Virus record (IMG/VR): IMGVR_UViG_3300047476_001246
DNA: 64,000 nucleotides
Strand: one strand, 5' to 3'
Origin: a virus
Shown piece by piece: positions 13,402 to 28,893 of this stretch. The translations under genes were made by a program, and so were the position numbers. Positions within the stretch are counted from its first letter, which is position 1, and every line of letters starts with the position of its first letter. Under the pieces are notes generated by a model. It saw only the letters and a program-made list of their open reading frames with translations, made no database searches and was not told the DNA's origin.

Positions 13402-13477
13402 TGGTTGCGGGAGGAGGAATCGAACCTACCATCTGAGAGCTTATGAGACTCCCGTGCGACCACTACACTTTCCCGCG
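13402..13477 (-). tRNA. tRNA-Met(CAU), initiator-like
   Basis: Cloverleaf, loop CUCAUAA, C1:A72 mismatch, encoded CCA. Confidence 0.9.
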
Positions 13478-13873
13478 ATTGATCTGTTGGGGCTTATCGT
13501 CCCCGGATGTCCGTACCTTAGAGCGTCCTCTAAGTTCACTAGTAAATTCTAGCCATATCAACAACTACAGACCGGACTATTCTTTATTTAAATCGTTTTA
13601 GGATTTGTTTAATCTTCCATTTGATGTAATAAGGTATTTCACGCAATGGAATAGCAAACATTACACACTCCTATTTTCTCTACGGAAAGTCAAGTATTCA
13701 TCAAACGCCACTGCCACCCAGCCGCAGAAAGCCATGAAATAACCACTAATGGCCATACTGTTATTGGCACCATACGCTGCTACTATATTTAGAATACACA
13801 TCAGTACAATCACAAATGGCAGACCTACTCGAACATATTTCAACATTTCAAACTCCTTGAAAATAAAAAGTTT

Positions 13874-13947
13874 TGGCTCCGGTGGAGGGAATCGAACCCC
13901 CACTAACGGTTTTGGAGACCGTCGCACTGCCATTATACTACACCGGA
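13874..13947 (-). tRNA. tRNA-Trp(CCA)
   Basis: Loop CUCCAAA; CCA end. Confidence 0.93.
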
Positions 13948-14305
13948 ACGGATCATTTGTTATCGTTATTAACGATATTGCTCAACATTGTTTCGCGTCG
14001 TTCTTGCATTTCGCGAACTGTTTCTTCGTTTTCTAACTGACTCAAATTGATAGAATATATAACCCAGACGCCACCAGCAAAAAACGATAACACAAACAGA
14101 TTAAAAAGTGTATCTGCATCCAACTGAAATAATGCTACTAACACAATCGGGATCATGGTAGCAATAGCTAGCATCCCGGCGGTACGACCTGCTGCACGAA
14201 CTTTGATATTCATCGACAACTCCTACTTAGTTAATATACTTCATATTATACTTGAAGTGCTATTTTCTGTCAACCACTGATTTTTTGTTGCTATTTTGTT
14301 AACTT

Positions 14306-14395
14306 TGGCGGAAGCGGTGAGATTCGAACTCACGGTACCTTTCGGTACGTCTGTTTTCAAGACAGGTGCAATCAGCCAGGCTCTGCCACACTTCC
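14306..14395 (-). tRNA. tRNA-Ser(UGA)
   Basis: Loop CUUGAAA; long variable arm; G73. Confidence 0.93.
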
Positions 14396-14752
14396 GTATA
14401 ACTTACCGTGTTCTTCTCTATGACAATTTGAGCATAAAAGAACACATTTATCTAGTTCAGCAAAAAGTTTTTCTCGCTTGAACTTTCTTAAACCTTTAGG
14501 ATCTTTTTGCTTAGGATCCTTATGATGAAACTCTAATGCGCCGCGATACTTGTTATATCCGCAATGCTCGCATTTTCCGCCTTTATAGGCTAATGCCTCA
14601 TCTCTTACTTGTAATCTATATTGTTCTTGCTGTATTCCAAAACAAGAATAACATTGACTTTTCATTTTGCCATAAAACTTTTTGGGATCTTGTTCTCCAC
14701 AAGTTTCGCAATGATGTAATTTTTTAACAATACCTTTTAATGGCGAGCCCAT
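14372..14752 (-). CDS. HNH homing endonuclease inserted at tRNA-Ser
   Basis: CEHCG...LEFHH.DP...CVLLCSNCHREEH; own AGGAG RBS and ATAAATA; flanked by a 15-bp repeat of the tRNA-Ser 5' end. Confidence 0.85.
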   Translation of the reverse strand: MGSPLKGIVKKLHHCETCGEQDPKKFYGKMKSQCYSCFGIQQEQYRLQVRDEALAYKGGKCEHCGYNKYRGALEFHHKDPKQKDPKGLRKFKREKLFAELDKCVLLCSNCHREEHGKLYGSVAEPG

Positions 14753-14796
14753 AAGTTTAATCTCCTTAAACTTATTTATCATTTTATTGTAAATTA

Positions 14797-14823
14797 TAAT
14801 AAACCGGACTCTGCCACACTTCC
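14797..14823 (-). pseudogene. Orphan 5' fragment of tRNA-Ser (acceptor 5' strand plus part of D-arm)
   Basis: GGAAGTGTGGCAGAG at 14809-14823 is identical to 14381-14395. Confidence 0.75.
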
Positions 14824-15074
14824 AAATTACTTGGACCAGGTCATAACAAACAATGTTCGATCCTGATCCCACTTAAATGCTACGCCGATATTATAGAGAA
14901 TGCTACAGTCATCGTAGGCCCAAGTTGCATATCTTGCTCCTACGCACTGTTTTAACCAATCCTCTACAGTAATTAAACTTTTGACCCAATCAATTTGACA
15001 AGAATCAAAATTGGGCCACGGGATAGTTGCATGATATTGGAATTTGTGCCAATCCACTAACATGCAAATATTTA

Positions 15075-15152
15075 TGGAGCATCGAGCTGGATTCGAACCA
15101 GCGGCTTTAGAGTTTTGCAGACTCTTGCATTGGGCCACTCTGCCATCGATGC
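15075..15152 (-). tRNA. tRNA-Cys(GCA)
   Basis: Loop CUGCAAA; U73. Confidence 0.93.
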
Positions 15153-15159
15153 ATAATAC

Positions 15160-15234
15160 TGGTCCGGCGTGAGGGAATCGAACCCCCATTAAGAGTTTAG
15201 AAGACTCCTGTCCTATCCGTTGAACGAACGCCAG
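15160..15234 (-). tRNA. tRNA-Arg(UCU)
   Basis: Loop CUUCUAA. Confidence 0.92.
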
Positions 15235-15241
15235 TATTACT

Positions 15242-15319
15242 TGGTGGGCCTTGTTGGAGTCGAACCAACTACCACCCGATTATGAGTCGGATGCTCTAAC
15301 CACCGTGAGCTAAAGGCCC
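15242..15319 (-). tRNA. tRNA-CAU, probably Ile2 (lysidine type)
   Basis: Loop CUCAUAA; GGGCCUU acceptor resembles Ile2 bodies. Confidence 0.85.
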
Positions 15320-15327
15320 TACAAACT

Positions 15328-15410
15328 TGGTACCCGAGGCCGGACTCGAACCGGCACGCCATAAGCGGGAGATTTTAAGTCTCCTGTGTCTACCATTCCA
15401 CCACTCGGGC
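15328..15410 (-). tRNA. tRNA-Leu(UAA)
   Basis: Loop CUUAAAA; variable arm. Confidence 0.93.
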
Positions 15411-15419
15411 ATTCTAAAC

Positions 15420-15496
15420 TGGTCGGAGATGCAGGGATCGAACCTGCGACCTCTCGCTCCCAAAGCGAGCGCACTACCAGGCTGTGCTAATCTCCG
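15420..15496 (-). tRNA. tRNA-Pro(UGG)
   Basis: Loop UUUGGGA; C1-G72. Confidence 0.93.
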
Positions 15497-15738
15497 TTTT
15501 AATCTTCTTCATCACTTGCATTAAAATATGCAATTATTTTACTACGAGCTTCATCTTCTGTCAAGGCCGGAATAGTCACAGTAGCCAGTCCGTTCTTGAT
15601 TTTTATATCAAATGGAACTACTCCACGCGGCAACCACCCATCTTCAACGGGTACAGTAATGGTAAACTCCTTCAAGTTCATCATTCTTTCTATGGCTCGT
15701 TGTGCTAAATCACTTGGATGTGGCATAATAAAATCCTT

Positions 15739-15812
15739 TGGTGCCCTTTGACAGAATCGAACTGCCAATAGATGATTACAAATCAACTGTTATACCATTT
15801 AACTAAAAGGGC
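15739..15812 (-). tRNA. tRNA-Thr(UGU)
   Basis: Loop UUUGUAA. Confidence 0.92.
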
Positions 15813-15819
15813 AAAAACT

Positions 15820-15911
15820 TGGCGGAGCGTATTGGATTCGAACCAATGATACCCTTATGAGGTATGCTTTCTTAGCAGGAAAGTGCCTTCGACCAACTCG
15901 GCCAACGCTCC
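15820..15911 (-). tRNA. tRNA-Ser(GCU)
   Basis: Loop CUGCUAA; long variable arm. Confidence 0.93.
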
Positions 15912-15954
15912 AGTAATCTTACTTATTAAGTATATTATACAGCATTGCTTCTTT

Positions 15955-16626
15955 TCAAGCAACTATTTTTTTACGTATTGTAGTCCAAAGTTGATCAATT
16001 TGATTGGCATAATCAGCTTCTTCAGGAACTACATCTACAAATTCTCCATATCTAGCCCCCGTAAAGTTTTTTTCAACTCGAGTAAAGGGCAACTCTTCTT
16101 CTAACATTTTTCCTCGAAAACGGTCATAGGCTTGATTAAAAACCGACGTCCATAATTCTAATCCTCGACCTGCTGCAATGTTTATACCAAGTTCGGGTAT
16201 GGCAAAATGATGATCCCACAATGCAGTCCAATCATCATTGATGTTGTTGATATAATCAACTACTCTTTTGGTCAAAACAAATGCATCAGATTCGATGTTT
16301 ACAATTTTATCAAAATTGTATTTTGCAGCATAATCTGTTGCTGTTTGCATACTTCTAAACAAACCTGGATACTCAAACGGTGCCGGGGATCCGAGGTTAT
16401 CATTGTGATGAAACAGTACAACATTGTGATTGGGCTGCACATCAGGTAAATCGTAAATCACTTCGCAATCAATATCCAGCGGTAGCGTTGGTGAACCATC
16501 GTCGACTATAAGTATTTGATCAAACTCTAATCCTACGGTACTGTGATAGTCCAACCAACGCTTCCATCTGTGGTTCCATAGTCCTTGCGAATCAGCAAAG
16601 CTAGCACAAAATAGCAAGGTCTTCAT
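15955..16626 (-). CDS. Glycosyltransferase-like (GT-A) hypothetical protein
   Basis: ILIVDDGS and IESD (DxD-like) motifs. Confidence 0.6.
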   Translation of the reverse strand: MKTLLFCASFADSQGLWNHRWKRWLDYHSTVGLEFDQILIVDDGSPTLPLDIDCEVIYDLPDVQPNHNVVLFHHNDNLGSPAPFEYPGLFRSMQTATDYAAKYNFDKIVNIESDAFVLTKRVVDYINNINDDWTALWDHHFAIPELGINIAAGRGLELWTSVFNQAYDRFRGKMLEEELPFTRVEKNFTGARYGEFVDVVPEEADYANQIDQLWTTIRKKIVA

Positions 16627-17228
16627 TACATTGCAGGACCATTGCCATTGCGAAAACCTACTGTACCACCTTCGGCTTCGATACGCTTGATAACATCTTC
16701 AAACAAGATAGGTGCAAAGTCTGTCTGTTCAACGCAGACGCAATGATAGCGAGGGTCAATCTTTTCTTTTACTCCCCACTCCACGAACTCTGCGGTAGAA
16801 CTGGCTCGACGCATTACACGGTTAGCATGCAAGTGTCCGTGAATGTTAACACCAAACCTACCAAGGCTGTCCTCATGAATAGGAATATGACTTAAAATCA
16901 TTCCGTTCATGACATGATATGCCCGAAGCTCACGAAAATACTTGCGGTACTCGTCGTCGCGGAAGATGTCGTGGTTGCCTCTAATTAACACTTTGTCGCC
17001 GTTTAAACGACTCAATGTTTCAAGGCTTCGACGATTGATAACAACATCGCCCAGGTGGTAAACTTTATCATTGGGTCTAACACGCTCGTTCCATGCTGCT
17101 ACCATAAACTCATCCATTTCCTCCGGGCTCTCCCAAGGGCGCAGTTTCGTCACTCCATCGTTCCGCATAAAGCGGCAAACACCAGCGTGACCAAAATGCG
17201 TGTCACTGACTAAAAACACTGCTGGCAT
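16626..17228 (-). CDS. Calcineurin-like metallophosphoesterase
   Basis: SDTHFGH, HLGDV, GNHD, SHIP, HGHLH; start at MPAVF with GGAG RBS. Confidence 0.92.
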   Translation of the reverse strand: MPAVFLVSDTHFGHAGVCRFMRNDGVTKLRPWESPEEMDEFMVAAWNERVRPNDKVYHLGDVVINRRSLETLSRLNGDKVLIRGNHDIFRDDEYRKYFRELRAYHVMNGMILSHIPIHEDSLGRFGVNIHGHLHANRVMRRASSTAEFVEWGVKEKIDPRYHCVCVEQTDFAPILFEDVIKRIEAEGGTVGFRNGNGPAM

Positions 17229-17241
17229 TTGGTTCTCCTTA

Positions 17242-17670
17242 TTAAAAATCTTCGCGAACTTCGCGAAACGAAGTAGGGTCTGCATCCGGGTTAGTATCGA
17301 CTTCAAAAGATCCACCGTAATAGCCGTTGTGGCTATTACGCACTTCAAAGTCAATATATCCGCGATCAGTTTTCAAAGTAAAGAAACCATCTTGGATAAC
17401 GTCCCATTCGTCCTCATCAGTTCGATTTTCGCCCCAACCTTTATCTTCTGCTCCGGTCACTAGTGCTCCACGCAGGATGTCAAAAGTATTACCTTCTCCT
17501 AGCACATTCACACCAGTCATGTGATTGATCCACACAGTATTGCAACAGTCTCCAGAAGTGTAGTAATGAAATTCCTGACCGTTGATTGTACGCACAATCA
17601 ACCGGTTATTGTCGTCATTCAGGAGAATGCTGTTAATACGCTCCCCTACTAAATTTTTAAACACGCTCAC
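17242..17670 (-). CDS. Phage hypothetical protein (DCC...NGYYGG)
   Basis: ORF with GGAGG RBS. Confidence 0.7.
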   Translation of the reverse strand: MSVFKNLVGERINSILLNDDNNRLIVRTINGQEFHYYTSGDCCNTVWINHMTGVNVLGEGNTFDILRGALVTGAEDKGWGENRTDEDEWDVIQDGFFTLKTDRGYIDFEVRNSHNGYYGGSFEVDTNPDADPTSFREVREDF

Positions 17671-17684
17671 AGCACCCTCCTTTC

Positions 17685-17972
17685 TTATATATCAGCTATT
17701 TGCACTTTTAATATTGCAGCGGTTAAGTCTGCTTCATTTTTTACACCGATCCAATAGGTCGGACGATCACGCCGTGGTTGTTTGTAATAGCCCCATGGGG
17801 CGTCTTGATAGACTCTTTTCCACCATATGTTCCATGGTTGAACTCCGCTGTACATCTCCGACAATGCTCGCTTTACGGCATCGGACTCTCGGCCTTCTTT
17901 GTTGAATCTAAGGGCATGAGTAAAGCCGTATTGTGCTAATACATACCTACGATTCAATTTAATTACTTTCAT
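17685..17972 (-). CDS. Hypothetical protein, close paralog of 20092..20379
   Basis: Shared RRYVLAQYGFTHALRFN...PWGYYKQPRRDRPTYWIGVKNEADLTAAIL. Confidence 0.75.
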   Translation of the reverse strand: MKVIKLNRRYVLAQYGFTHALRFNKEGRESDAVKRALSEMYSGVQPWNIWWKRVYQDAPWGYYKQPRRDRPTYWIGVKNEADLTAAILKVQIADI

Positions 17973-17974
17973 TA

Positions 17975-18289
17975 TTATGATACTACCAACTCTTTAGCCG
18001 GGTATTCAATCTTGCCTTCATACTCGAGCTGGCTGCGCTCAAACTCGGTCAGGTAATCGTCTTCAACAACTTCCCAAGCCAGAATATGTTCGCGATAGTA
18101 GCCACCATTTCTTTCGATCTGCGGAGCCACTTGATCAACTAATTCTGCTGCAACACCGACATTGATGTTTTTAACCACATATTCGCAACCGCCCTTGGCT
18201 TTCCAATACTCAGGAACTTGGCCTTCACCGTCCCAATCATGGGCACCGTAGTTTTCGTAGACTTGGGTAATAATAAGCAGTTTAGACAT
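17975..18289 (-). CDS. Phage hypothetical protein (TQVYENYGAHDWDG...YWKAKGG)
   Basis: ORF with AGGAG RBS. Confidence 0.75.
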   Translation of the reverse strand: MSKLLIITQVYENYGAHDWDGEGQVPEYWKAKGGCEYVVKNINVGVAAELVDQVAPQIERNGGYYREHILAWEVVEDDYLTEFERSQLEYEGKIEYPAKELVVS

Positions 18290-18477
18290 TTCGGCGCTCC
18301 TGATTAGATATTAAACCAATTCAACAAGTCATCTTCAACTTGCAAAAAACCAGCAGTATAACCAGCACCTACCCAATATTTGATTGAACGATATCGACGA
18401 CCGTCTTGTCCAATCCAGGAATCGCTAATAATTGGTGCTCGTTTCATTCGCTGCTCCTTGTCGTTCACTATACATAC

Positions 18478-18506
18478 ATTATAGCAAAATGGGTCTTTTT
18501 GGTCTA
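18478..18506 (-). promoter_or_regulatory. Sigma70-type early promoter, representative of a repeated family
   Basis: TAGACC-17-TATAAT with extended TG; related copies at 46267-46295, 47823-47851, about 18761, 41098, 51876, 52254, 61790. Confidence 0.75.
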
Positions 18507-18829
18507 CCAAAATACGTGTTGCTATTCAAGCAACAAAATCGTACACATAATTGGCGCCAACTTTACTAGGCTTTACCTTAAAGTCAAACTCGCGGCACAG
18601 AGTAGAAAACACACGACGGGCGGTGTTTTCGGTCACATCTTCAAGAAACAAGGAGCCGTTGTAAAATTCAGCACGGCCTTCGTTAAGCACTGGGGAGATT
18701 AGGTCAAGTACTCGGGATTCGAATGCCATTTTGCTACTCCTTGTTAATTACTATACTTGTATTATAGCAAAATGGCAATTTATGAGCAACCAAAATGTTT
18801 TGTTGCTAAAAAGCAACAAATGTTGCATT

Positions 18830-19429
18830 TTATGTAATACTTGCTCTATTAGCAACAACTTGGTCTGCTAGGCCGTATGCAACCGCTTGTTCGGCGCTCA
18901 TAAAGTAATCACGCTCCATGTCTTCGCGCAGTTCATCATAGGTCTTGCCTACGCTGTTGTGCTTGACATAGATACCAGTAAGGTTGCGCTTCATCTCCAG
19001 GATCTCACGCACTTGGATTTCCATGTCTGTGGCTTGACCTCGAGCACCACCACTTGGTTGGTGAATCATGTGTCTAGCATTGGGCAGAATAAAACGCTTG
19101 CCTGCTGCACCTGCTTGTGCCAACAGCGAACCCATTGAGCAGGCTTGTCCCATCACAATAGTATTCACATCTGGTCGAATGAACTGCATAGCATCATAAA
19201 TTGCCATGCCAGCTGTCACTGATCCACCTGGGCTATTGATCCATAGGTTAATATCCCGATCCGGATCTTCACTTTCAAGATACAGCAATTGTGCAACAAT
19301 CAAATTGGCCATTTGATCATGTACTTCTCCCTCTAGTAGGACCACACGCTCTTTTAGCAATCTGCTATAGATATCATAGCTACGTTCGCCTTTACTAGTT
19401 TGTTCTACAACCATGGGCACTAATGGCAA
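18830..19429 (-). CDS. clpP: ATP-dependent Clp protease proteolytic subunit
   Basis: [36 protein letters not shown]. Confidence 0.98.
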
Positions 19430-19446
19430 TTTATTCTCCTTGATAA

Positions 19447-19899
19447 TTATGGATTTACTACAAATTCAGTTAACTCTAATACACCTAGATCTTCAAAATA
19501 ACCCGATGCTGGGCTTGATACTTTTACTAACTTGCCTGTGTCTGAGTAAAACTCTACAGTGTATGCGTCGCAGGCATTCTCTTCCCAAATTTTTCTAGCA
19601 GCTTCGGCAGCACCACGATCTCGAAATACCCACAGTATTTCACCTCGTCCGGTTTCGTGTCCAAATGTGTCGCCGGTACGATAAGTCATCCAAAGAACAT
19701 ACACACGGTCGCCTGGGCCCACGTCAAAGTCTGTGGTAAATTCTTCAATATCGTATCCGAGACCCTGCCAACCAGCTAAAGTTGATAGCCCGACTGAGCG
19801 AACATCGTATTCCCATTCACGGTGCCAATCACCGTATTCTTCGCCATCCCAGTAATCTTCCAAACATCGCTCATGATAGTTTACATACAGCTTCATCAC
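19447..19899 (-). CDS. Hypothetical protein
   Basis: ORF track. Confidence 0.65.
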
Positions 19900-20091
19900 A
19901 ATCTCCGTTTTTTCCAGTTATAATCTGGACCTACATCAGCTACACCCATTTTAGTTGCATTGTCTGGCAATTCGCTACACATAGTCACAAACTGTCTACC
20001 GCTATTACGCAAGTCTTGGCAGTAATCGAGTGCTTCTGTCATGATAGGAAATTCTTTGCCATACGATTGTTCACCGTAGGTCCAGTACACT

Positions 20092-20379
20092 TTAAACATC
20101 GTTCATCTGCGCCATTAATATTGCAGCAGTTAAGTCTGCTTCGTTTTTTACACCGATCCAATAAGTAGGACGATCCCGGCGCGGCTGTTTGTAATAGCCC
20201 CATGGTGCCGTTTGATTGGCCCATTTCCACCAGATGTTCCATGGCGAAACACCACTGTACATTTGAGTTAATGCTTTTTTTACGGAATCAGACTCTCGAC
20301 ATTCGTTGTTAAATCGAAGGGCATGTGTAAAGCCGTATTGCGCTAACACGTATCTGCGAGTTAATTTTACAACTTTCAT
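20092..20379 (-). CDS. Hypothetical protein, paralog of 17685..17972
   Basis: Start re-assigned to MKVVKL with GGAGG RBS. Confidence 0.75.
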   Translation of the reverse strand: MKVVKLTRRYVLAQYGFTHALRFNNECRESDSVKKALTQMYSGVSPWNIWWKWANQTAPWGYYKQPRRDRPTYWIGVKNEADLTAAILMAQMNDV

Positions 20380-20458
20380 CACACCCTCCTTTCTAGTATA
20401 ATAACAAAATGGTTCTTTACGGGCAAGAAAAATGCCCATAATGGGCATTTTAAAAACA

Positions 20459-20533
20459 TGGAGCGGGTGACAGGGATCGAACCTGCGACGAACAGCTTGG
20501 AAGGCTGACACTCTACCACTGAGTTACACCCGC
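20459..20533 (-). tRNA. tRNA-Gly(UCC)
   Basis: Loop CUUCCAA. Confidence 0.94.
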
Positions 20534-20543
20534 ATTTGAAACT

Positions 20544-20618
20544 TGGCGGTCCCAAGGGGGATCGAACCCCTGTGTCCGGATAGACAGTCCAGCATAATGA
20601 CCATTATATGATGGGACC
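20544..20618 (-). tRNA. tRNA-Asp(GUC)
   Basis: Loop CUGUCUA; G73. Confidence 0.9.
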
Positions 20619-20623
20619 TTGTT

Positions 20624-20700
20624 TGGCTGACCAGGTAGGGCTCGAACCTACGACATTCTGATTAACAGTCAGACGCAACTACCAACTGTGCTACTGGTCA
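20624..20700 (-). tRNA. tRNA-Asn(GUU)
   Basis: Loop CUGUUAA. Confidence 0.93.
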
Positions 20701-20716
20701 ATAAAACTTATAAATC

Positions 20717-20790
20717 TGGTAGCCCGTGACAGAATCGAACTGCCGTAACCGCCGTGTAAAGACGGAGTTCTACCATTAAACTAACGGGCC
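20717..20790 (-). tRNA. tRNA-Val(UAC)
   Basis: Loop UUUACAC. Confidence 0.92.
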
Positions 20791-21221
20791 TTATATTCTT
20801 GCAAATATCTATTGCGTTTTGTATCTTTTTTATATCTATTGCCTTGTCCTTTACTACCAAAGTTTTCTGTTTGCGTATGGCAGTTAGGACAAAGTAGCCT
20901 TAAATTACTAGGGAAATTATTATCACTATCACCATCAATATGGTCTAATTGTAACATAAGAGGCTTTTTATTCCAAATAGAACTTTGCCCACATTCCTCG
21001 CATATTTCCCCGCGTGTCTCAATTAAGTACTTTTTAAGAGCACGAGATCCATCACTTACTTTACCTTCTAAAATTCTAGGAATTGTTTCATTGTACCACT
21101 TAAACAAGCCTTGACAATTATTATCACAAAACTTGTTTATTTTACTATGCCCCCACAGATTTTCTTTTCTGCAGTGCAAACAGTTATATTTCCTATTGCT
21201 ACCTTTAATTCCGCTCGGCAT
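20781..21221 (-). CDS. HNH endonuclease
   Basis: CEECG...LQLDHIDGDSDNN...NLRLLCPNCH. Confidence 0.88.
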   Translation of the reverse strand: MPSGIKGSNRKYNCLHCRKENLWGHSKINKFCDNNCQGLFKWYNETIPRILEGKVSDGSRALKKYLIETRGEICEECGQSSIWNKKPLMLQLDHIDGDSDNNFPSNLRLLCPNCHTQTENFGSKGQGNRYKKDTKRNRYLQEYKAR

Positions 21222-21271
21222 AACATAGACCTCCTATTATATTTAGCAAAGGTCTATGTTTTTGATTTATT

Positions 21272-21358
21272 TGGTGGGTGCTGATGGTAATGCTCCACGT
21301 GCCTTGACTTCCCTACCTTTAGGAATGGTTTTACAGACCACCGTAGGGGGCAACACCC
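21272..21358 (-). tRNA. Atypical tRNA-Tyr(GUA)-like RNA lacking a normal D-arm
   Basis: Acceptor GGGUGUU/AGCACCC-ACCA, anticodon loop CUGUAAA, no D-arm, T-loop AGCAUUA. Confidence 0.65.
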
Positions 21359-21367
21359 ATTTAACTT

Positions 21368-21443
21368 TGGTGGAGGTTATCGGACTCGAACCGATCACCC
21401 TTAGCTTGCAAAGCTAATGCTCTCCCAGATGAGCTAAACCCCC
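21368..21443 (-). tRNA. tRNA-Ala(UGC)
   Basis: Loop UUUGCAA; G3:U70. Confidence 0.94.
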
Positions 21444-21446
21444 AAA

Positions 21447-21698
21447 TTAATTTTCTCTAACATGTTTGGCGTCAACACAAGTTTCGCCTTTGAACACATA
21501 CACATCTGAATCTACTCGTAGCTGTTCAAACACTTGATTGTTCACGCAAATATATGGATCTCGATGATTTTGCATGTAGTAAAAGACTGCATAACCAATA
21601 CCAGCTAATATCATTAGTATAGGAATATACTTAAGATATTTCACAATTTCGGGCATTGCACCCAAAATTTGCGGTAAGTTTTTTAACAGGTCTTTCAT
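21447..21698 (-). CDS. Small membrane protein
   Basis: One TM helix; TAAATA 6 nt upstream of the ATG. Confidence 0.65.
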   Translation of the reverse strand: MKDLLKNLPQILGAMPEIVKYLKYIPILMILAGIGYAVFYYMQNHRDPYICVNNQVFEQLRVDSDVYVFKGETCVDAKHVREN

Positions 21699-21771
21699 AC
21701 TCGTATTTAACCATTCTGAAGCACACTATGCCACGCTTTGAACCTGGACTCTTAGTAATGTGCTTTAGAAT

Positions 21772-22664
21772 GTGCTAACGCTGAGATTACACGTTAGCCA
21801 CAAGCACCTCTAGCATTATAGTACGCCTTGCGAGCATACCTTCTCTAGACATCCACTAAATCCTGTTATCACACAGTAATCTAGTCTGCTTGCAGCATCG
21901 CCGTTTTTATGGTCAGGCAGTAGACCAGTCGTTACGTGCTACTCTGTACCTTATTTTCCGTTGAACTTGCGGTCCATTAAGCCTTGCGAGCTACGAAACT
22001 TCTAGTACAAATTAGTGTCACCTTGCGAGCTTCACTAAACTCAATTGGCTCACGCCTTGAGTGTTAGATGCTTTTCGCACATAACCGGAGCAGTCTTTGC
22101 ATTTTTGTAATGATAGTTGGATTCGAACCAACTGCCGTCAGATTAAAAAGTCTGTCGCTCTACCGATGAGCTATATCAACCTACTACGATGTGCTGCTCC
22201 AGTTGCTGAATAAAGTTTTGCTCTACCCAATACAACACACCATGTACCTTTTGCCTGCCGGCTACTCAGTAGTCCTTCGCGATTAGTGTGACCCCGCCGT
22301 TGCCGACAGCCCCACCGACCACTTGTACTGCACACAAGCCCTTGGCTGCGAAACCTCGGACAAATGCACTACCCTTTCTCATACCAGTTAACTGATTGGT
22401 TTTGCAGTGAAGTCAGCACCACCTGTTACTTTCCTTGCACCCTGGTTCCCTTGCGGGCCAGTCGATACAAGTTCTTTCCACTACATCAGCTTCGCTGTTA
22501 AATCCACCCGTCTTATAAGTGAACGCTACCTCACGGTAGTGAGCAGGCTTGTTTAAGCGGACCATTGCTGGCGCAGGCGTGTAGGACGCTGCTGCTTTGG
22601 GTCACTCACGTGACTTATCCTTAGTTAGACGGCGAACCGTCTAGCAAGAGATTAAACTCCCTAA
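21772..22664 (-). ncRNA. GOLLD RNA (giant ornate RNA) with embedded tRNA-like domain
   Basis: About 890 nt non-coding, many GNRA/UUCG hairpins (CUCGCAAGG, ACCGUGAGGU, GACGGUUCGCCGUC), 3' end ...GUAAUCUCAGCG, inside a phage tRNA cluster, own TTGACA-17-TATTAT promoter at 22671-22699. Confidence 0.8.
22109..22180 (-). tRNA. tRNA-Lys-like domain inside GOLLD (8-nt loop CUUUUUAA, no CCA)
   Basis: D-arm, T-arm GUUGG-UUCGAAU-CCAAC, only 5-bp acceptor. Confidence 0.7.
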
Positions 22665-23745
22665 GTATCTATAATAAAACAAATTCAAATTCTTGTCAAC
22701 TACTTTTTTATCATATTGAAACACACTGACTACATTGGCAAACCCGTTTGGGATTTACAACCGTTGTCTGGGCGGTGATCCGCTTACAATGCATTTCAAT
22801 ATGGCCGGTCTGTCCTGTTGTTACAGTCCATCTAGGCTGAACAGCATTTGCAACTGACTGAACGGATACTCTTAATACCCATCTTTAGAACTGACCGTCT
22901 ACCATATTGAAGCACACTATCACAAACTACAGGCACGACTAAGAGCCCGGGAAAAAGACAATGTGCTTCAATATGGCAACAATGTTGACTACCCTTCTAG
23001 CCCACGGTCAAGTTCTGCTAGTCGCTCTAGGGTCATTGGCGGTACTGTTTGCACAGGCAGACCCAATCATTGTTTACCATATTGAAGCATACTCCGGCAA
23101 GGACTCGCACCTCGCTCCACCCTGTCCCAAACTACTTACGGATACGAGATTCAGTCTTCCGGACGACTTCATCTTATCTTACCGCTTTCACCCAAGGTGC
23201 ATGCGAACGTCATACACTACAGAATGTGCTTCAATATAGATCCCACCGTTAACGACAGCATTTGTCCTAGCTTTATTTTGAGTCGGTTAATGCACGGTGG
23301 GAACACATGCCGACCTGTCGTATTTTCGTGTACTGTTGCTTGCCCCAAGGGTTAGGTACCTACCTCAGCGACTCATACTGGTCGACGACAACGACCGCTG
23401 CTCTTAAATTACATCTAGTACAAACAAATGCTTGGGGAATCGAACCCCGCCTGCTCCCCTTTCGGCAACTCATTCACCCCTGCAAGGGTTTCAACTCTGC
23501 GTACTCGGTTCACCGTGCTAGCCAATACACTTAGCAGCCTGTCATAGTTCATTGCAGTGCCCTATGAGCAGTTTTGTACTATATAGAAACACACTGCCGA
23601 TTAGTTATCAAGAAACGACCTGATGATCAAGTCAGGCTCAGTATGTTTTTATATGCAGTCTCGTTTAGCGTCCGAGACTGCCAAGACGGGGTCTGTAGAC
23701 TGCTGACAATTTATCACATTATACGCCGTCAGCAAAGGCGAGCTT

Positions 23746-23841
23746 TGGGTGCAGGATCAAGGGGTCGAACCTCGACGCGACATATCTAGAATAACCACGT
23801 TGAGCCTGCTCAACATGGCGTCGCCCAGTCCACTTCCTGCA
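23746..23841 (-). ncRNA. tRNA-like RNA with acceptor stem, T-arm and CCA but no anticodon loop
   Basis: UGCAGGA/UCCUGCA-C-CCA; GAGG-UUCGACC-CCUU; central long hairpin CCAUGUUGAGC-AG-GCUCAACGUGG. Confidence 0.65.
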
Positions 23842-23845
23842 TAAC

Positions 23846-23920
23846 TGGTACACCGTAGGAGAATCGAACTCCTCTTACCTGCGTGAAAGGCGGGTGTCCT
23901 AACCGATAGACGAACGGTGC
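23846..23920 (-). tRNA. tRNA-Glu(UUC)
   Basis: Loop CUUUCAC. Confidence 0.93.
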
Positions 23921-23928
23921 ATAACTTT

Positions 23929-24003
23929 TGGCGTCTCTGGATGGAATCGAACCACCATCACAAGTTTCGTAGACTCGTATCCTATCCGTTGAACGACAGA
24001 GAC
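23929..24003 (-). tRNA. tRNA-Arg(ACG)
   Basis: Loop CUACGAA. Confidence 0.92.
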
Positions 24004-24004
24004 T

Positions 24005-24200
24005 GTGTATTCTTGCTTAGGCCACGTGGTTCCACCCATCGCCCCTATGCTGGAGTTGTTGCCCTGTCCGAACACTAATGCGGTTTGCTACGTAGTGTCC
24101 ACGCTGCTATGTTGTCTGCTTACGTCTGCGCTGTCGGTGCCATAGCCACCGGACTGTCTCATAGTCAACGCCAACTTTATGGATAGTTGGAATCCGGAAT
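24005..24200 (-). ncRNA. Putative structured ncRNA, copy 2 of the GGACAGGGCAACAACUC family
   Basis: Shares core with 12950..13160; promoter-like sequence at about 24204-24234. Confidence 0.5.
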
Positions 24201-24351
24201 CTGTATAATAGCAAAAATTATCTTTTTAGTCTACCATAATTTAGTACACTGTGATTAACAAGTTTATCGGCAGCATCCTCTTGTTGTGGATGTCAGATCT
24301 CCTGGACAATCTAATGTCTCGGGCACTGCCTTATATCAACGTACTAAATTA

Positions 24352-24435
24352 TGGTGCCCCAGGCGAGACTCGAACTCGCACGCCTTGCAGCACTGGCTTC
24401 TAAGACCAGCGTGTCTACCATTCCACCACCAGGGC
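24352..24435 (-). tRNA. tRNA-Leu(UAG)
   Basis: Loop CUUAGAA; variable arm. Confidence 0.93.
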
Positions 24436-24579
24436 AATGTTTACAAATTGTTAATGAACCTGTTTCTTACTGCTTGTCTGTGTTGTCTTACACAGTTTCA
24501 TTATTATATGGAATATTGCTATTCCTGTCAACTACTTTTTTGTGTTGTATTTTTGCAACACAGTTGCTACTTTGTTAAC

Positions 24580-24655
24580 TGGTAGTAGAGGTCGGACTCG
24601 AACCGACGATAAACACCGTATGAAGGTGGTGCATTGGCCGCTATGCTACTCTACC
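24580..24655 (-). tRNA. tRNA-Met(CAU), elongator-like
   Basis: Loop UUCAUAC. Confidence 0.88.
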
Positions 24656-24656
24656 G

Positions 24657-24733
24657 TGGTACCCACTCTTGGAATTGAACCAAGGACCCTCGCCTTATCA
24701 AGACGATGCTCTGACCAACTGAGCTAAGTGGGC
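24657..24733 (-). tRNA. tRNA-Ile(GAU)
   Basis: Loop UUGAUAA. Confidence 0.92.
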
Positions 24734-24771
24734 ATTTTTAAATTGTACTAAAAACTACCTTTATTGTCAAC

Positions 24772-24846
24772 TGGCCGGTCCGGACAGATTCGAACTGCCG
24801 ACAGCTGGTTTCGAAGACCAGAACTCTTCCGCTGAGCTACGGACCG
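24772..24846 (-). tRNA. tRNA-Arg(UCG)
   Basis: Loop CUUCGAA. Confidence 0.9.
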
Positions 24847-24853
24847 TAATACG

Positions 24854-24929
24854 TGGTGCTGCCTCTAGGAATCGAACCTAGTTCAACGGCTCTTCAGACC
24901 GCCGCTATGACCACATCAGCTAAAGCAGC
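24854..24929 (-). tRNA. tRNA-Phe(GAA)
   Basis: Loop CUGAAGA. Confidence 0.92.
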
Positions 24930-24930
24930 A

Positions 24931-25004
24931 TGGTGCTCCCAACTGGTAATGATCCAGTGTTTCTACATTACCAATGTAGTGTAATACCTTTATACTATAG
25001 GAGC
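24931..25004 (-). tRNA. tRNA-Thr(GGU) with non-canonical T-loop AUCAUUA
   Basis: Loop UUGGUAA; CCA end. Confidence 0.85.
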
Positions 25005-26573
25005 TTTATCTACTAGAATTGAAAATAATTTTTGCTTGTATTGATCAATAAAATTTTTACGTACATTTGCTTCAATATCGTGAAAGTTAAAATCCTTGAA
25101 CAATGTGTTTCTAACAGTGTTAAACGAGTAATCGGGATGATTCATCGAGCTCACTGCTATAGCAAATTGCCCACTAATATGTAGTTTGTCGGATTGAAAA
25201 CTTTCTTTCATAATGAAGTTAGATAGTTTACTGACACGTTCATAACTGGTATTTTTATTTTTCCAGTTCATAATTTTATCAAATTTTTTAATAGCATACT
25301 GTACGTGGGGTACAACAGTATCTACATCGTCGTCCTCATAATATCCGTAAGATTTATAATTTTTTACAATATCACTTGAATATGTTGTTAAATCTTGTCG
25401 GTATATCCTTAATGCATTAAAAATCCAACTGTGAAGAGGAACGTCCTGTTTCATTATTGCTTCAAATGTCTTTAAATTTGATTCCTCGGTATCTTCGGGC
25501 AAACCTGCTATAAAACTGCCATGCAATGATAAATCTTTATCATACTTTTTTCTAAGATATTCCAAAGTTTGAATTTGTTTACTGATATTAAAACCTTTAC
25601 CGATTAATTTTGCACTCACCGGATTAAGTGTTTCTATTCCAAAGAACATAGATCTTACACCAATATCATACAGCAAGTCTATTGTGTGTGGTCGTGTGGC
25701 CAAAAGGTCCAGACGATGATATCCCCAAAACTCTGGTTGGAAAGGCAATTTTTTAATTATGCTGTGCAATCGGTGCAATTTTGCTTCGTGATCATTGAAT
25801 GTATCATCTACCAGCAAATATGTTTTAATGCCATGCTCTTGGTAATTTTTTTCTAACTCATACGCCAGGTGCTTTTCGGATCTTACAAAATCAAGATTTT
25901 GTTTACCATTCATTGGATACGAACAAAACTTGCACTGAAAAATACAACCTCTGGCAACTTCTAGTGGTAATGAAGTATGATTTACTATGTCCTCTGGCAA
26001 CCACACAAAGTCAGAATTTACAAAATCATATTCCTTGGCCAATCTATCATCAATGATGATGCAGCCCCACAAATTTTTTGTACTGTTATTAAGTTTTTCT
26101 CCACGACTTACGTGATTCATTAGGTTAACAATGCTTACTTCACTATATCCAATACAAGCATAATTAATATTTTTATTATTCATGTTAGGATGAGCTTTTG
26201 TGCCACCTACAAGAATTTTTACATCGGAATTCAGACTCTTGAAATACCCAATTAGTTTATTTTCAATTTCTTTGCCATGAGGGAAAATTTGATTAACCGG
26301 CAACTCTGTGTATCGCGGAGTTGGTTTTCCTTCTACCTGATCAACTTCGATACTTTTAAAAAAGGTGGTACTAAATGCAATTAGTTTGGTTTGATTGGTA
26401 ATAACCAGATCTGCTAATTTTTTTAATTCAGCTTCATCGAATGACGAAAAATGATTTACTACCAAACAACGATATCCATTTTTTCTCAGCACGTGGGCAC
26501 ACTTGTATGCACCAATTGGCGGAATACTGGCTATGTTATCTGTTTCGTCAGTGAAAAAAATTGCATCGTACAT
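24990..26573 (-). CDS. Radical SAM protein (class B, B12-binding-like N-terminus)
   Basis: RGCIFQCKFC (CxxxCxxC), DDTFN, FFGIET, FIAGLP. Confidence 0.9.
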   Translation of the reverse strand: MYDAIFFTDETDNIASIPPIGAYKCAHVLRKNGYRCLVVNHFSSFDEAELKKLADLVITNQTKLIAFSTTFFKSIEVDQVEGKPTPRYTELPVNQIFPHGKEIENKLIGYFKSLNSDVKILVGGTKAHPNMNNKNINYACIGYSEVSIVNLMNHVSRGEKLNNSTKNLWGCIIIDDRLAKEYDFVNSDFVWLPEDIVNHTSLPLEVARGCIFQCKFCSYPMNGKQNLDFVRSEKHLAYELEKNYQEHGIKTYLLVDDTFNDHEAKLHRLHSIIKKLPFQPEFWGYHRLDLLATRPHTIDLLYDIGVRSMFFGIETLNPVSAKLIGKGFNISKQIQTLEYLRKKYDKDLSLHGSFIAGLPEDTEESNLKTFEAIMKQDVPLHSWIFNALRIYRQDLTTYSSDIVKNYKSYGYYEDDDVDTVVPHVQYAIKKFDKIMNWKNKNTSYERVSKLSNFIMKESFQSDKLHISGQFAIAVSSMNHPDYSFNTVRNTLFKDFNFHDIEANVRKNFIDQYKQKLFSILVDKAPIV

Positions 26574-26612
26574 GTTTATAGTTATTGATCTCTCTAGAGT
26601 TCTTTATATTCT

Positions 26613-26688
26613 TGGGGTATCCGACCGGTATCGATCCGGTACTACCGCTTTCACAGAGCAGGGTGCAGGCCACTACACTACGGACACC
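26613..26688 (-). tRNA. tRNA-His(GUG)
   Basis: Loop CUGUGAA; G-1 and C73. Confidence 0.92.
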
Positions 26689-26690
26689 AT

Positions 26691-26766
26691 TGGCAAGGGG
26701 TACAGGATTCGAACCTGTGACACGCGGGATCAAAACCCGCTGCTCTACCAACTGAGCTAACCCCCA
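26691..26766 (-). tRNA. tRNA-Gln(UUG)
   Basis: Loop UUUUGAU. Confidence 0.92.
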
Positions 26767-26845
26767 ACTGAACCATATAGAAACACACTACTTGCGTCTC
26801 CGTGTAGAACCAAGTCACACGGTACTTGGCCAGTATGTTTTTATA

Positions 26846-26921
26846 TGGTGGAGCCACTGGGATTCGAACCCAGACCTGACGGATTAAAAGTCCGCTGTCT
26901 TAACCGTTTGACTATAGCTCC
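26846..26921 (-). tRNA. tRNA-Lys(UUU)
   Basis: Loop CUUUUAA. Confidence 0.92.
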
Positions 26922-27208
26922 ATTCTAATACCATACAGCTGAAACATCAATGCTGCTAGTTTATGCTTGTTTTGATATGTCCAACCATATCTAAGTAAGC
27001 CTATCTTGTCACTCTTGTCACTGTCCATACGGACTCTCCTTAAAAAGAAAATACTACTAAAATTTCTACCACACGATTTGCTGCATTTATTAAAATTTCG
27101 TAAGCCCCATTTTACTATCCTTTCATATTTTTGTCAACCCAGTACAACAAAAGAACCACAAATACAAGTACAATCACAGCCCCATGTCATGGTTCTCCTT
27201 TAAGTTAG

Positions 27209-27283
27209 TGGAGCAGGATATCGGATTCGAACCGATGACATTCTCGTCGGCAACGAGACATTCTACCACTGAATTAATCCTGC
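27209..27283 (-). tRNA. tRNA-Gly(GCC)
   Basis: Loop UUGCCGA. Confidence 0.9.
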
Positions 27284-28134
27284 ATAAAAATTTGTTTACA
27301 GTACTCTAAGTCACTATAATCCAAATGCGGCATATTGTCATACAGTCTAATAGATACTGCATTTGTTATTGTCGGATGATACTCTAAAAAATTAAAGTTT
27401 CTATCCTTGATCATGTAAGACTGTCTTGACTCAAGATAGAAAGGTCTCTGCACCACAGTTTTTAAACTGGGATTCTGAACCAACATCCAGTTTCCTAAAA
27501 TTTCATATTCACTAAACCAAATATGTCCTTGTTTCTGTTTCAATTCGTATTTGACTGCTTCGAGCCACGGCCTACTATACGAATTTTCAATATGCTTCTT
27601 TAACGATTCCCAATGGCATTTCTTTAACGGAAAAATGTCTGTTATAAAACTGTTATTTGTTTGCCTTGGGCGACCAGTAAATTTGTTAACAAATTCATAA
27701 TATTCTTCGTCGTGATTGACTCCTTCCAATACAGCAGGCACTGGCTCATTGTTATCAAAATAATGATATGGTCGTGTTAGCAGTATATCACTGTCCTGTA
27801 TCAAAATATTTTCATTGTCACAGGAGTCAATGGCCATGAACTTTATGAGTTGCTGCCTGATCCAAAAATTCATAGTGCCGTACAAATTCAATTCTTTGTA
27901 CTGCTCCAGTATATCCAAATCGTGTACAACACGGAATGTACTGGTGTCTATTCCGTGTTGCTGATATATTTCTAATAGATTGATTGGGTTTCGCCAACGC
28001 CGTCCGGGCTCAACAACAGATCCTAGGTAAACAATCGTTTGATCAGGTTTAGGATGTAAAAATTTATCAAACTGTAGTGTTAGTACAGACTCGATCACTT
28101 TGGTTGAAGCGACGAACATTAATCTACATATCAT
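27274..28134 (-). CDS. Glycosyltransferase-like hypothetical protein
   Basis: WIRQQLIK...DSD...FSEYEILG motif; start re-assigned outside tRNA-Ile. Confidence 0.65.
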   Translation of the reverse strand: MICRLMFVASTKVIESVLTLQFDKFLHPKPDQTIVYLGSVVEPGRRWRNPINLLEIYQQHGIDTSTFRVVHDLDILEQYKELNLYGTMNFWIRQQLIKFMAIDSCDNENILIQDSDILLTRPYHYFDNNEPVPAVLEGVNHDEEYYEFVNKFTGRPRQTNNSFITDIFPLKKCHWESLKKHIENSYSRPWLEAVKYELKQKQGHIWFSEYEILGNWMLVQNPSLKTVVQRPFYLESRQSYMIKDRNFNFLEYHPTITNAVSIRLYDNMPHLDYSDLEYCKQIFMQD

Positions 28135-28150
28135 ATAACTTCCTTTTATT

Positions 28151-28242
28151 TGGTCCCCCAGGCGGGAGTCGAACCCACATTGGCCAATTATCTGTTGCAC
28201 ACGGGATATAAATCCGCTGTTTTACCATTAAACTACCGGGGG
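28151..28242 (-). tRNA. tRNA-Ile(UAU) with unusually long variable region
   Basis: Acceptor CCCCCGG/CUGGGGG-ACCA; loop UUUAUAU; about 22-nt variable region. Confidence 0.8.
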
Positions 28243-28495
28243 ATTGACACTCTGGTTGCTTAGAAAGCTGCCTTCCGGTCCGTCAAAGGGATAGGAACAC
28301 TGTTCATCCAAAGTGTATGATAAAACACATTCCTGGGCTCTCGTACCAGTAGCCCATAGCGCCGGCCGCCATTATGTGTTTGAATGTGCTTTATCATCCG
28401 GATTTTACCACTGCGTTATCGCCACAGCTTCATCCTCGGCTCCGCCCGTTTGGCAAGTTATAGTGTTGCCGCAGCCTCGTTCCGCTACACACTTA

Positions 28496-28663
28496 TTACT
28501 TTTGTCGTTTTGTTAGACGACGCAATTTTTCTGCTTCCTCTGATTGCTTACGCAATCGTTCTAATTTACTTTTAACTAACTCTTCAAGCAACTTATCGTT
28601 AAAAACAAAATTACGTTCTTCTAACTTTTTTTGAAACGACATAATTTCTTGATCGTTTGTCAT
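28496..28663 (-). CDS. Small basic coiled-coil protein (55 aa), first ORF after the attenuator
   Basis: Read manually: MTNDQEIMSFQKKLEERNFVFNDKLLEELVKSKLERLRKQ...; AAAGGAAGAG RBS. Confidence 0.55.
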   Translation of the reverse strand: MTNDQEIMSFQKKLEERNFVFNDKLLEELVKSKLERLRKQSEEAEKLRRLTKRQK

Positions 28664-28675
28664 CTCTTCCTTTAT

Positions 28676-28712
28676 AAAACAAAAACCCCAGGGTGTTTAG
28701 TCCTGGGGTTTT
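28676..28712 (-). terminator. Intrinsic terminator of a putative attenuator
   Basis: AAAACCCCAGG-ACTAAACAC-CCTGGGGTTTT followed by TGTTTT; 5' arm can alternatively pair with 28740-28758. Confidence 0.85.
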
Positions 28713-28734
28713 ATAGAATTTGGTTATTTAAAAC

Positions 28735-28857
28735 TTAGGTTCTATAATCCCCCAGGACACGATTACTAATATCGCGTGTAATCATACCCCAGTAGGCTAC
28801 TAGCCCACATTCGGGTTGTGATATAAACGATTTATGTAATAGTGCGGAGTTCATCAT
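28735..28857 (-). CDS. Putative attenuator leader peptide (40 aa) containing all 20 amino acids
   Basis: MMNSALLHKSFISQPECGLVAYWGMITRDISNRVLGDYRT*; ATG 7 nt after the -10 box; 3' end overlaps the antiterminator arm. Confidence 0.7.
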   Translation of the reverse strand: MMNSALLHKSFISQPECGLVAYWGMITRDISNRVLGDYRT

Positions 28858-28864
28858 AGTCTCT

Positions 28865-28893
28865 ATTGTATATTTATTTATCTCTGTTGTCAA
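28865..28893 (-). promoter_or_regulatory. Sigma70 promoter heading the tRNA array
   Basis: TTGACA-17 nt-TACAAT, with ATAAATA embedded in the spacer. Confidence 0.85.

Follow-up and report, generated by a model that had tools for sequence, protein, structure and literature searches.

A putative ribosome-coupled transcription attenuator with a leader peptide of all 20 amino acids upstream of phage tRNA genes

Attenuators have been described in several forms. Untranslated trp and his leaders terminate transcription, and T-box riboswitches bind one uncharged tRNA directly, with translation not involved. The toiL- and bmrB-type leaders are of the type that senses general translation rate or ribosome presence. 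It has long been asked why phages carry tRNA arrays; codon bias, replacement of degraded host tRNAs and escape from anticodon nucleases have been considered. The whiB7 (wblC) uORF of M. smegmatis has 19 amino acids, and the residues present in it decide which starvation is sensed; loss of its start codon raises expression, and a single Trp codon confers sensing of Trp (PMC10274678). Theory holds that a control region with only a small share of regulatory codons has low sensitivity (PMC1183508). Among phages, the tRNA-Lys of T5 counters PARIS (PMC11464382).

Here we consider a viral sequence of 64,000 nt (IMG/VR record IMGVR_UViG_3300047476_001246), all of which is called the window below, in which a short ORF precedes an array of tRNA genes. 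A sequence-only reading had proposed that this ORF is a pan-residue leader peptide that gates the tRNAs by attenuation. The proposal draws support from conservation of the residue set, covariation of the helices, the geometry of the ribosome footprint and the tracking of tRNA blocks by leaders, and we consider it very likely that the element acts as an attenuator of transcription coupled to the ribosome, and that it senses when decoding fails for any of the tRNA types that it gates. A promoter and a short leader ORF with its translation start lie 5' of the controlled genes, a ribosome at the end of the ORF would reach the antiterminator arm, with the sensor codons upstream (modelled footprint), and the sensor codons correspond at the amino-acid level to the products of the controlled genes.

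Table 1. Positions of the leader, the switch and the downstream genes in the window.
Feature	Position	Strand	Remark
Sigma70-type promoter	28865..28893	-	11/12 match; kept in relatives
Promoter boxes	-35, 28893-28888; -10, 28870-28865	-	
Two overlapping TAAATA motifs within the promoter spacer	28871..28880	-	candidate T4-type late promoter
Leader ORF, 40 codons	28735..28857	-	20/20 amino acids by codon 29 (28773-28771)
Modelled sensing window of the leader	about codons 3-31	-	footprint model
Hairpin within the ORF, just 5' of the antiterminator arm	28755..28788	-	candidate RNA polymerase pause hairpin
Antiterminator 5' arm (codons 34-40)	28740..28758	-	folding; cognate-pairing test
Antiterminator 3' arm; last 9 nt double as terminator 5' arm	28700..28718	-	folding
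Intrinsic terminator hairpin and U tract	28676..28710	-	compensatory stem variants in relatives
55-aa ORF, charged, with ribosome-binding site	28496..28663	-	first gated gene in the subfamily
Structured non-coding RNA, conserved	28311..28494	-	single copy directly downstream in 80/83 loci
tRNA array	13402..28242	-	29 ARAGORN genes, 19 isotypes plus a non-canonical Tyr-like tRNA
tRNA-Ile(UAU), first gated tRNA	28151..28242	-	long variable arm
tRNA-Gly(GCC), last tRNA ahead of the first internal promoter	27209..27283	-	
First internal sigma70 site	27109..27137	-	without TAAATA
Further internal sigma70 sites	24770, 24531, 22699, 15564, 14273	-	without TAAATA

The ORF is as it had been described, with 34 distinct codons among its 40 and all 20 residues within codons 1-29, and the check on composition found this not to be common by chance. 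For 29 codons, the exact probability of containing every residue is 2.2e-4 from the window proteome and 1-2e-4 in random DNA, none of the 9,577 29-aa stretches of real window proteins holds the full set, and among the top-ranked of the 424 short ORFs in the window the leader alone completes the set by codon 29. No single residue is used more than four times per 40 codons, so there is no regulatory run. The hairpin within the ORF (-8.6 kcal/mol) beats synonymous resampling in 50/60 relatives, with a mean z of about -1, and by inference it could pause RNA polymerase and so couple transcription to translation.

The sigma70 promoter that had been placed 7 nt ahead of the ATG (28857) was likewise recovered. 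A leaderless mRNA, which had been suggested from this spacing, fits the subfamily of this locus but is not general in the family: about 40% of family leaders have a 5' UTR of 20-60 nt, often with a Shine-Dalgarno-like motif, which rules out leaderless initiation as a family-defining trait. TAAATA was found in 76/111 leader promoters versus 6/134 array-internal promoters, a contrast in which the leader promoters are homologous to each other and do not count as independent evidence. From this motif we infer that the leader promoter may be a T4-type late promoter; the complete relatives are T4-like phages of 340-364 kb that encode Gp23 and a weak gp55-like match. Auxiliary metabolic genes lie just 5' of the promoter (32836-28934), including a beta-keto acid cleavage enzyme and a short-chain reductase by Pfam and an ORF that, by eye only, resembles an acyl-CoA ligase, and a 24-aa ORF at 34065-33991 (-) resembles the PQQ precursor PqqA.

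Of the 9+8-bp antiterminator that was said to compete with a terminator, the competition held up, but the 5' arm comprises codons 34-40 and not 35-40. The antiterminator (28758-28740 with 28718-28700) has a folding energy of -28 kcal/mol, and the terminator hairpin (28710-28684), followed by a U tract, one of -15.1 kcal/mol; they are mutually exclusive because both use the CCCCAGGAC arm. We modelled the switch by equilibrium folding with an assumed ribosome footprint that extends from 15 nt before the A-site codon to 9 nt past it. In this model, transcription at this locus reads through with codons 3-31 in the A site or with the ribosome absent, and terminates from codon 33. The ribosome-free default is modelled as read-through both here and in 33/52 relatives, while equilibrium folding gives 8/52 relatives no read-through window at all. 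The full set is reached at least two codons ahead of the antiterminator arm in 25/36 leaders, compared with 5 expected. Both helices covary across relatives: a leader tail pairs better with the spacer of its own locus than with that of the nearest relative in 29/38 untied pairs (p=2e-4; 21 vs 18 for a control segment), and terminator stems show compensatory variation across the RNA-anchored sample of relatives.

By analogy with known attenuators, and guided by the folding models, we suggest the following sequence of events. A ribosome that reads the full list would reach codons 33-40 and mask the antiterminator arm, so that the terminator forms and transcription stops. With the ribosome absent, or stalled no later than about codon 31, the antiterminator would stay intact and polymerase would go on to transcribe the tRNA genes along with the 55-aa ORF and the structured RNA; fresh tRNA would then relieve the stall, giving negative feedback. 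Because each amino acid is represented by one or two codons, such a leader should respond to severe loss of a single tRNA (through depletion, cleavage, lost modification or starvation) more than to mild limitation. Host anticodon nucleases such as PrrC and PARIS are a plausible trigger, and general tRNA decay or starvation are other candidates.

Leader diversity in related phages, together with covarying terminator and antiterminator, had been named as the place to look, and both were found there. Relatives were gathered by three anchors independent of the peptide, which proved too short or too variable to serve as a query for loci, namely the 55-aa ORF, the terminator pattern and the downstream RNA, and are only partly independent even after de-duplication. 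All ten loci found through the 55-aa ORF carry a leader, with 19-20 residues each. The terminator pattern found 120 loci; matches with tRNAs downstream carry a leader that ends 22-31 nt 5' of the hairpin, and matches far from tRNAs have no such leader ORF. The full set is present in 68 of 84 unique leaders, whose median identity to the leader of this locus is 24%, compared with 2.5-7.5 expected. When loci were anchored on the downstream RNA, 92/191 had a best upstream ORF with 20 residues and another 42 had one with 19, while on the antisense strand the corresponding numbers are 1 and 7. Cys is spread over 25 alignment columns, and chimeras made column by column from the relatives' leaders retain the full set in only 8-18% of cases; therefore, it is the set that is conserved rather than the positions. 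Between close pairs, residues present in single copy were changed at 8% of sites, compared with 15% for multicopy residues (p=1e-5). A search of GTDB genomes gave no match to the terminator pattern and 13 to the RNA pattern, three of them on short MAG contigs with leaders, which look like binned phage DNA, and the others without; no host chromosomal version was found in those genomes with either pattern.

Leader content follows the tRNA block that lies behind it. A tRNA for a residue missing from the leader occurs in the leader's own downstream block in 8/110 cases (7%), against 53 ± 5 by permutation and against 57% for residues that are present, and after 35% de-duplication the figure is 7/76 against 40 expected; many of the blocks compared are cut off by locus ends. 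Twin complementary leaders, one per tRNA block, were seen at L038 + L190, L234, L164, L144, L227, L031 and L299. L038 lacks C, H, I, K, Q, W and Y, and L190, on the same contig, lists those seven and precedes tRNAs for six of them, with no Tyr gene called in the stretch examined. Among close relatives, the leader of L010 lacks Trp and its tRNA-Trp is about 140 kb distant, and the leaders of L001 and L003 lack Cys and their tRNA-Cys is in a distal sub-block served by separate promoters. The match holds at the level of the amino acid. The leader codons had been thought to match the anticodons of the phage tRNAs, and the codons in question are there, but the matches number 15/34 against 16.5 expected; Watson-Crick matches were below expectation in 19/19 loci, which rules out the leader as a mirror of phage anticodons. 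Matching by isoacceptor is in general weak, with ATA as an exception and Arg CGN as a possible second one. ATA is found in 24/25 leaders whose block has tRNA-Ile(UAU), one exception against 8.2 expected, and at this locus it is codon 12, with tRNA-Ile(UAU) first in the array.

These comparisons bear on the possibility that the leader is a general sensor of translation rate or ribosome presence, its codon diversity serving to average elongation speed and not being read residue by residue. The modelled read-through of the ribosome-free RNA, here and in 33/52 relatives, speaks for such a sensor, as does the weak per-residue sensitivity expected when rare residues occur about once each (PMC1183508). 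However, a sensor that averages has no need to retain Cys, Trp and His while their positions shift, nor does it account for leaders that lose exactly the residues whose tRNAs have left the block or for ATA following tRNA-Ile(UAU), and we regard this explanation as unlikely.

The same relation between leader and block is seen in cultured phages, which were reached only via capsid and ClpP relatedness and published papers; direct DNA or peptide searches of cultured phages for the leader gave no match. The ClpP of the window is closest to that of Sinorhizobium phage Phosso (71%), followed by Agrobacterium phage Atu_ph07 (68%). The Phosso leader, CDS XYS97753.1 of PV764938.1 (419754-419918; L389:2755-2985), has 19 residues, Cys alone being missing, and the array behind its terminator has 19 isotypes and lacks only Cys; the set is complete at codon 41, with the antiterminator arm starting from codon 43. 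In the Atu_ph07 leader (AUZ95228.1; L407) the 13 residues ahead of the arm cover all 11 isotypes of the adjacent block (post hoc p about 5e-4). Two leaders occur in Ralstonia phage RsoM2USA (112124-112047 and 87361-87248; L416 and L417), and each lists its own block; the post hoc p-value is about 3e-4 for the first when the whole leader is counted and about 4e-4 for the second when its last 7 codons are left out. On folding, one of the two has no clear switch. For Phosso and Atu_ph07, the annotation of the leader goes no further than hypothetical protein. Common ancestry of the Phosso leader and the lake leader family is likely, but the Phosso peptide has no detectable homology or profile similarity to that family. 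In the regions fetched from six other cultured jumbo phages, Vibrio 2.275.O, GAP32, Paride, ph0011, XacN1 and XaC1, no leader or terminator was found near the tRNAs.

The genes behind the terminator deserve separate consideration. The 55-aa ORF (28663-28496), directly 3' of the terminator, belongs to a conserved family that is optional among relatives, and it has no Pfam, PHROG or cultured-phage match. The structured RNA (28494-28311) has no Rfam match; it contains a hairpin that covaries strongly and whose 7-nt loop is invariant, probably also forms a pseudoknot, and is closed by a long stem. The cargo of that stem varies and at times resembles a tRNA T-arm. The RNA may act as a processive antiterminator or else as a signal for processing; a boxA and a ribozyme were also considered as identities, and neither was established. 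Could this RNA, together with the 55-aa ORF, be the true target of the attenuator, with the tRNAs supplied mainly from their own promoters? Its presence 3' of the terminator in 80/83 loci would fit, and so would the promoter that many arrays have 5' of the first tRNA. Nevertheless, leader content follows tRNA content, and the leaders of L038, Phosso, Atu_ph07 and RsoM2USA still match their own tRNAs where a detectable structured RNA is absent, which makes this reading very improbable.

The internal sigma70-like promoters that had been expected to limit direct control to the first block do exist, and there are six of them inside the array. Ahead of the first lie the 55-aa ORF, the structured RNA, tRNA-Ile(UAU), a DUF6492 ORF and tRNA-Gly(GCC), and at this locus only these first genes are predicted to be gated exclusively by the attenuator. 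No terminator of comparable strength was found inside the array; therefore, read-through can add to the remaining array genes. In 80 arrays, internal promoters number 130 sense versus 4 antisense, and 63 of the arrays have sense ones. With internal sense promoters so common, read-through may only add to basal tRNA expression, and here the internal sites probably give a basal or early supply. Whether the gated promoter then dominates late in infection by way of TAAATA is, in our estimation, evenly balanced; should the leader promoter be the late one, expression of the array at that stage would hinge on the attenuator. Close relative L001 has 18 tRNAs without an internal sigma70 site, which suggests that the extra sites at this locus came with inserted genes.

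Several other RNA genes of the window are unusual. The tRNA-Ile(UAU) gene (28242-28151) has a 19-nt variable-arm insertion, uncommon for bacteria and phages. A tRNA-like gene with a Tyr anticodon (21358-21272, -) has no normal D-arm and was missed by ARAGORN, and relatives have a called tRNA-Tyr in the same place, after Ala. A GOLLD RNA lies within the array (22243-21778, -; Rfam 217 bits), with its own sigma70 site at 22699. Outside the array there is a suppressor-type tRNA with a CUA anticodon (37724-37649, -) and a permuted tmRNA (43139-42698, -) that matches the betaproteobacterial model, which hints at that host group.

A different function for the peptide would be to work in trans, or to arrest the ribosome by its own sequence, in which case its composition would reflect protein function. 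One Trp column and a short motif close to the C-terminus are fairly conserved in the leaders, and pN/pS is 0.51, both of which are in keeping with that idea. The pN/pS value is at most an indirect sign that the leader is translated. However, the low median identity to the leader of this locus is not, conserved leader codons coincide with RNA helices, and the Phosso leader keeps the set rule without profile similarity to the family, so that we rate a protein function as even less probable than control of the structured RNA. Codon usage in the family leaders is distinctive, with TAT at 94%, TTT at 91%, GAT at 89% and GAG at 89% (GAG, 20% in phage genes); U-ending codons are avoided in four-fold boxes and preferred in the Tyr, Phe and Asp boxes. 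This bias may select wobble- or modification-sensitive codons, with RNA structure as a confounding factor. Finally, a chance ORF before an ordinary constitutive terminator is scarcely credible, since, although 20 residues within 40 codons arise at about 1% per ORF and the window has hundreds of short ORFs, it is refuted by family-wide retention, covariation and block matching, and the same terminator pattern away from tRNAs has no such ORF.

If a sensor does turn the array on when decoding fails, the tRNAs would be an inducible repair kit, and the codon list of the leader would show which failures the phage monitors. More broadly, we suggest that in giant T4-like phages each tRNA block could be self-indexed by a translated checklist and transcribed on demand, and that such a loop could detect and counter host defences that destroy tRNA, or the collapse of tRNA brought by infection itself, with no dedicated protein sensor; taken together, these two proposals seem to us to have an even chance of being right. 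The three cultured phages, with culturable hosts, make a metagenomic pattern testable at the bench, and a compact all-codon leader could report on tRNA-targeting toxins and defence systems.

How, then, does the element stand beside the described systems? No Rfam family covers the element, and no Rfam leader family scored above its cut-off there (His_leader, 21 bits against 49), nor was there an Rfam match to a T-box (stem I specifier loop, T-box bulge). No description of leader-peptide attenuation of tRNA genes was found in the literature outside subscription journals that was searched, and the words attenuator, leader and terminator are absent from the phage papers checked. The T-box shares with this element the sensing of tRNA status by a choice between terminator and antiterminator. 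With the tRNA-Lys of T5 it shares a motive, that of a phage replacing lost tRNAs, but the passages of PMC11464382 consulted describe no demand-driven control of phage tRNA transcription. Like trpL, hisL, pheL, leuL, thrL and ilvGMEDA, the phage element has a short leader, mutually exclusive antiterminator and terminator, and codons that match what the operon supplies. Those leaders differ in having runs of one to three residues and in gating biosynthetic enzymes, whereas the phage leader is not upstream of amino-acid biosynthesis genes, and its untranslated default is modelled as read-through, unlike that of the trp and his leaders. Attenuation would thereby reach beyond enzyme operons that sense one amino acid, to tRNA genes that regulate their own expression. 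The mycobacterial whiB7 system has, as here, a uORF that overlaps an antiterminator/terminator pair, but it controls a transcription factor, is enriched in Ala and has no reported selection for a complete set (PMC10274678). The phage leader keeps the complete set, matches the downstream tRNAs, is phage-borne and is not enriched in Ala (5.9% of leader residues, compared with 6.4% in phage proteins). Among known systems it is whiB7 that the leader most resembles in its working, without being a member of that family.
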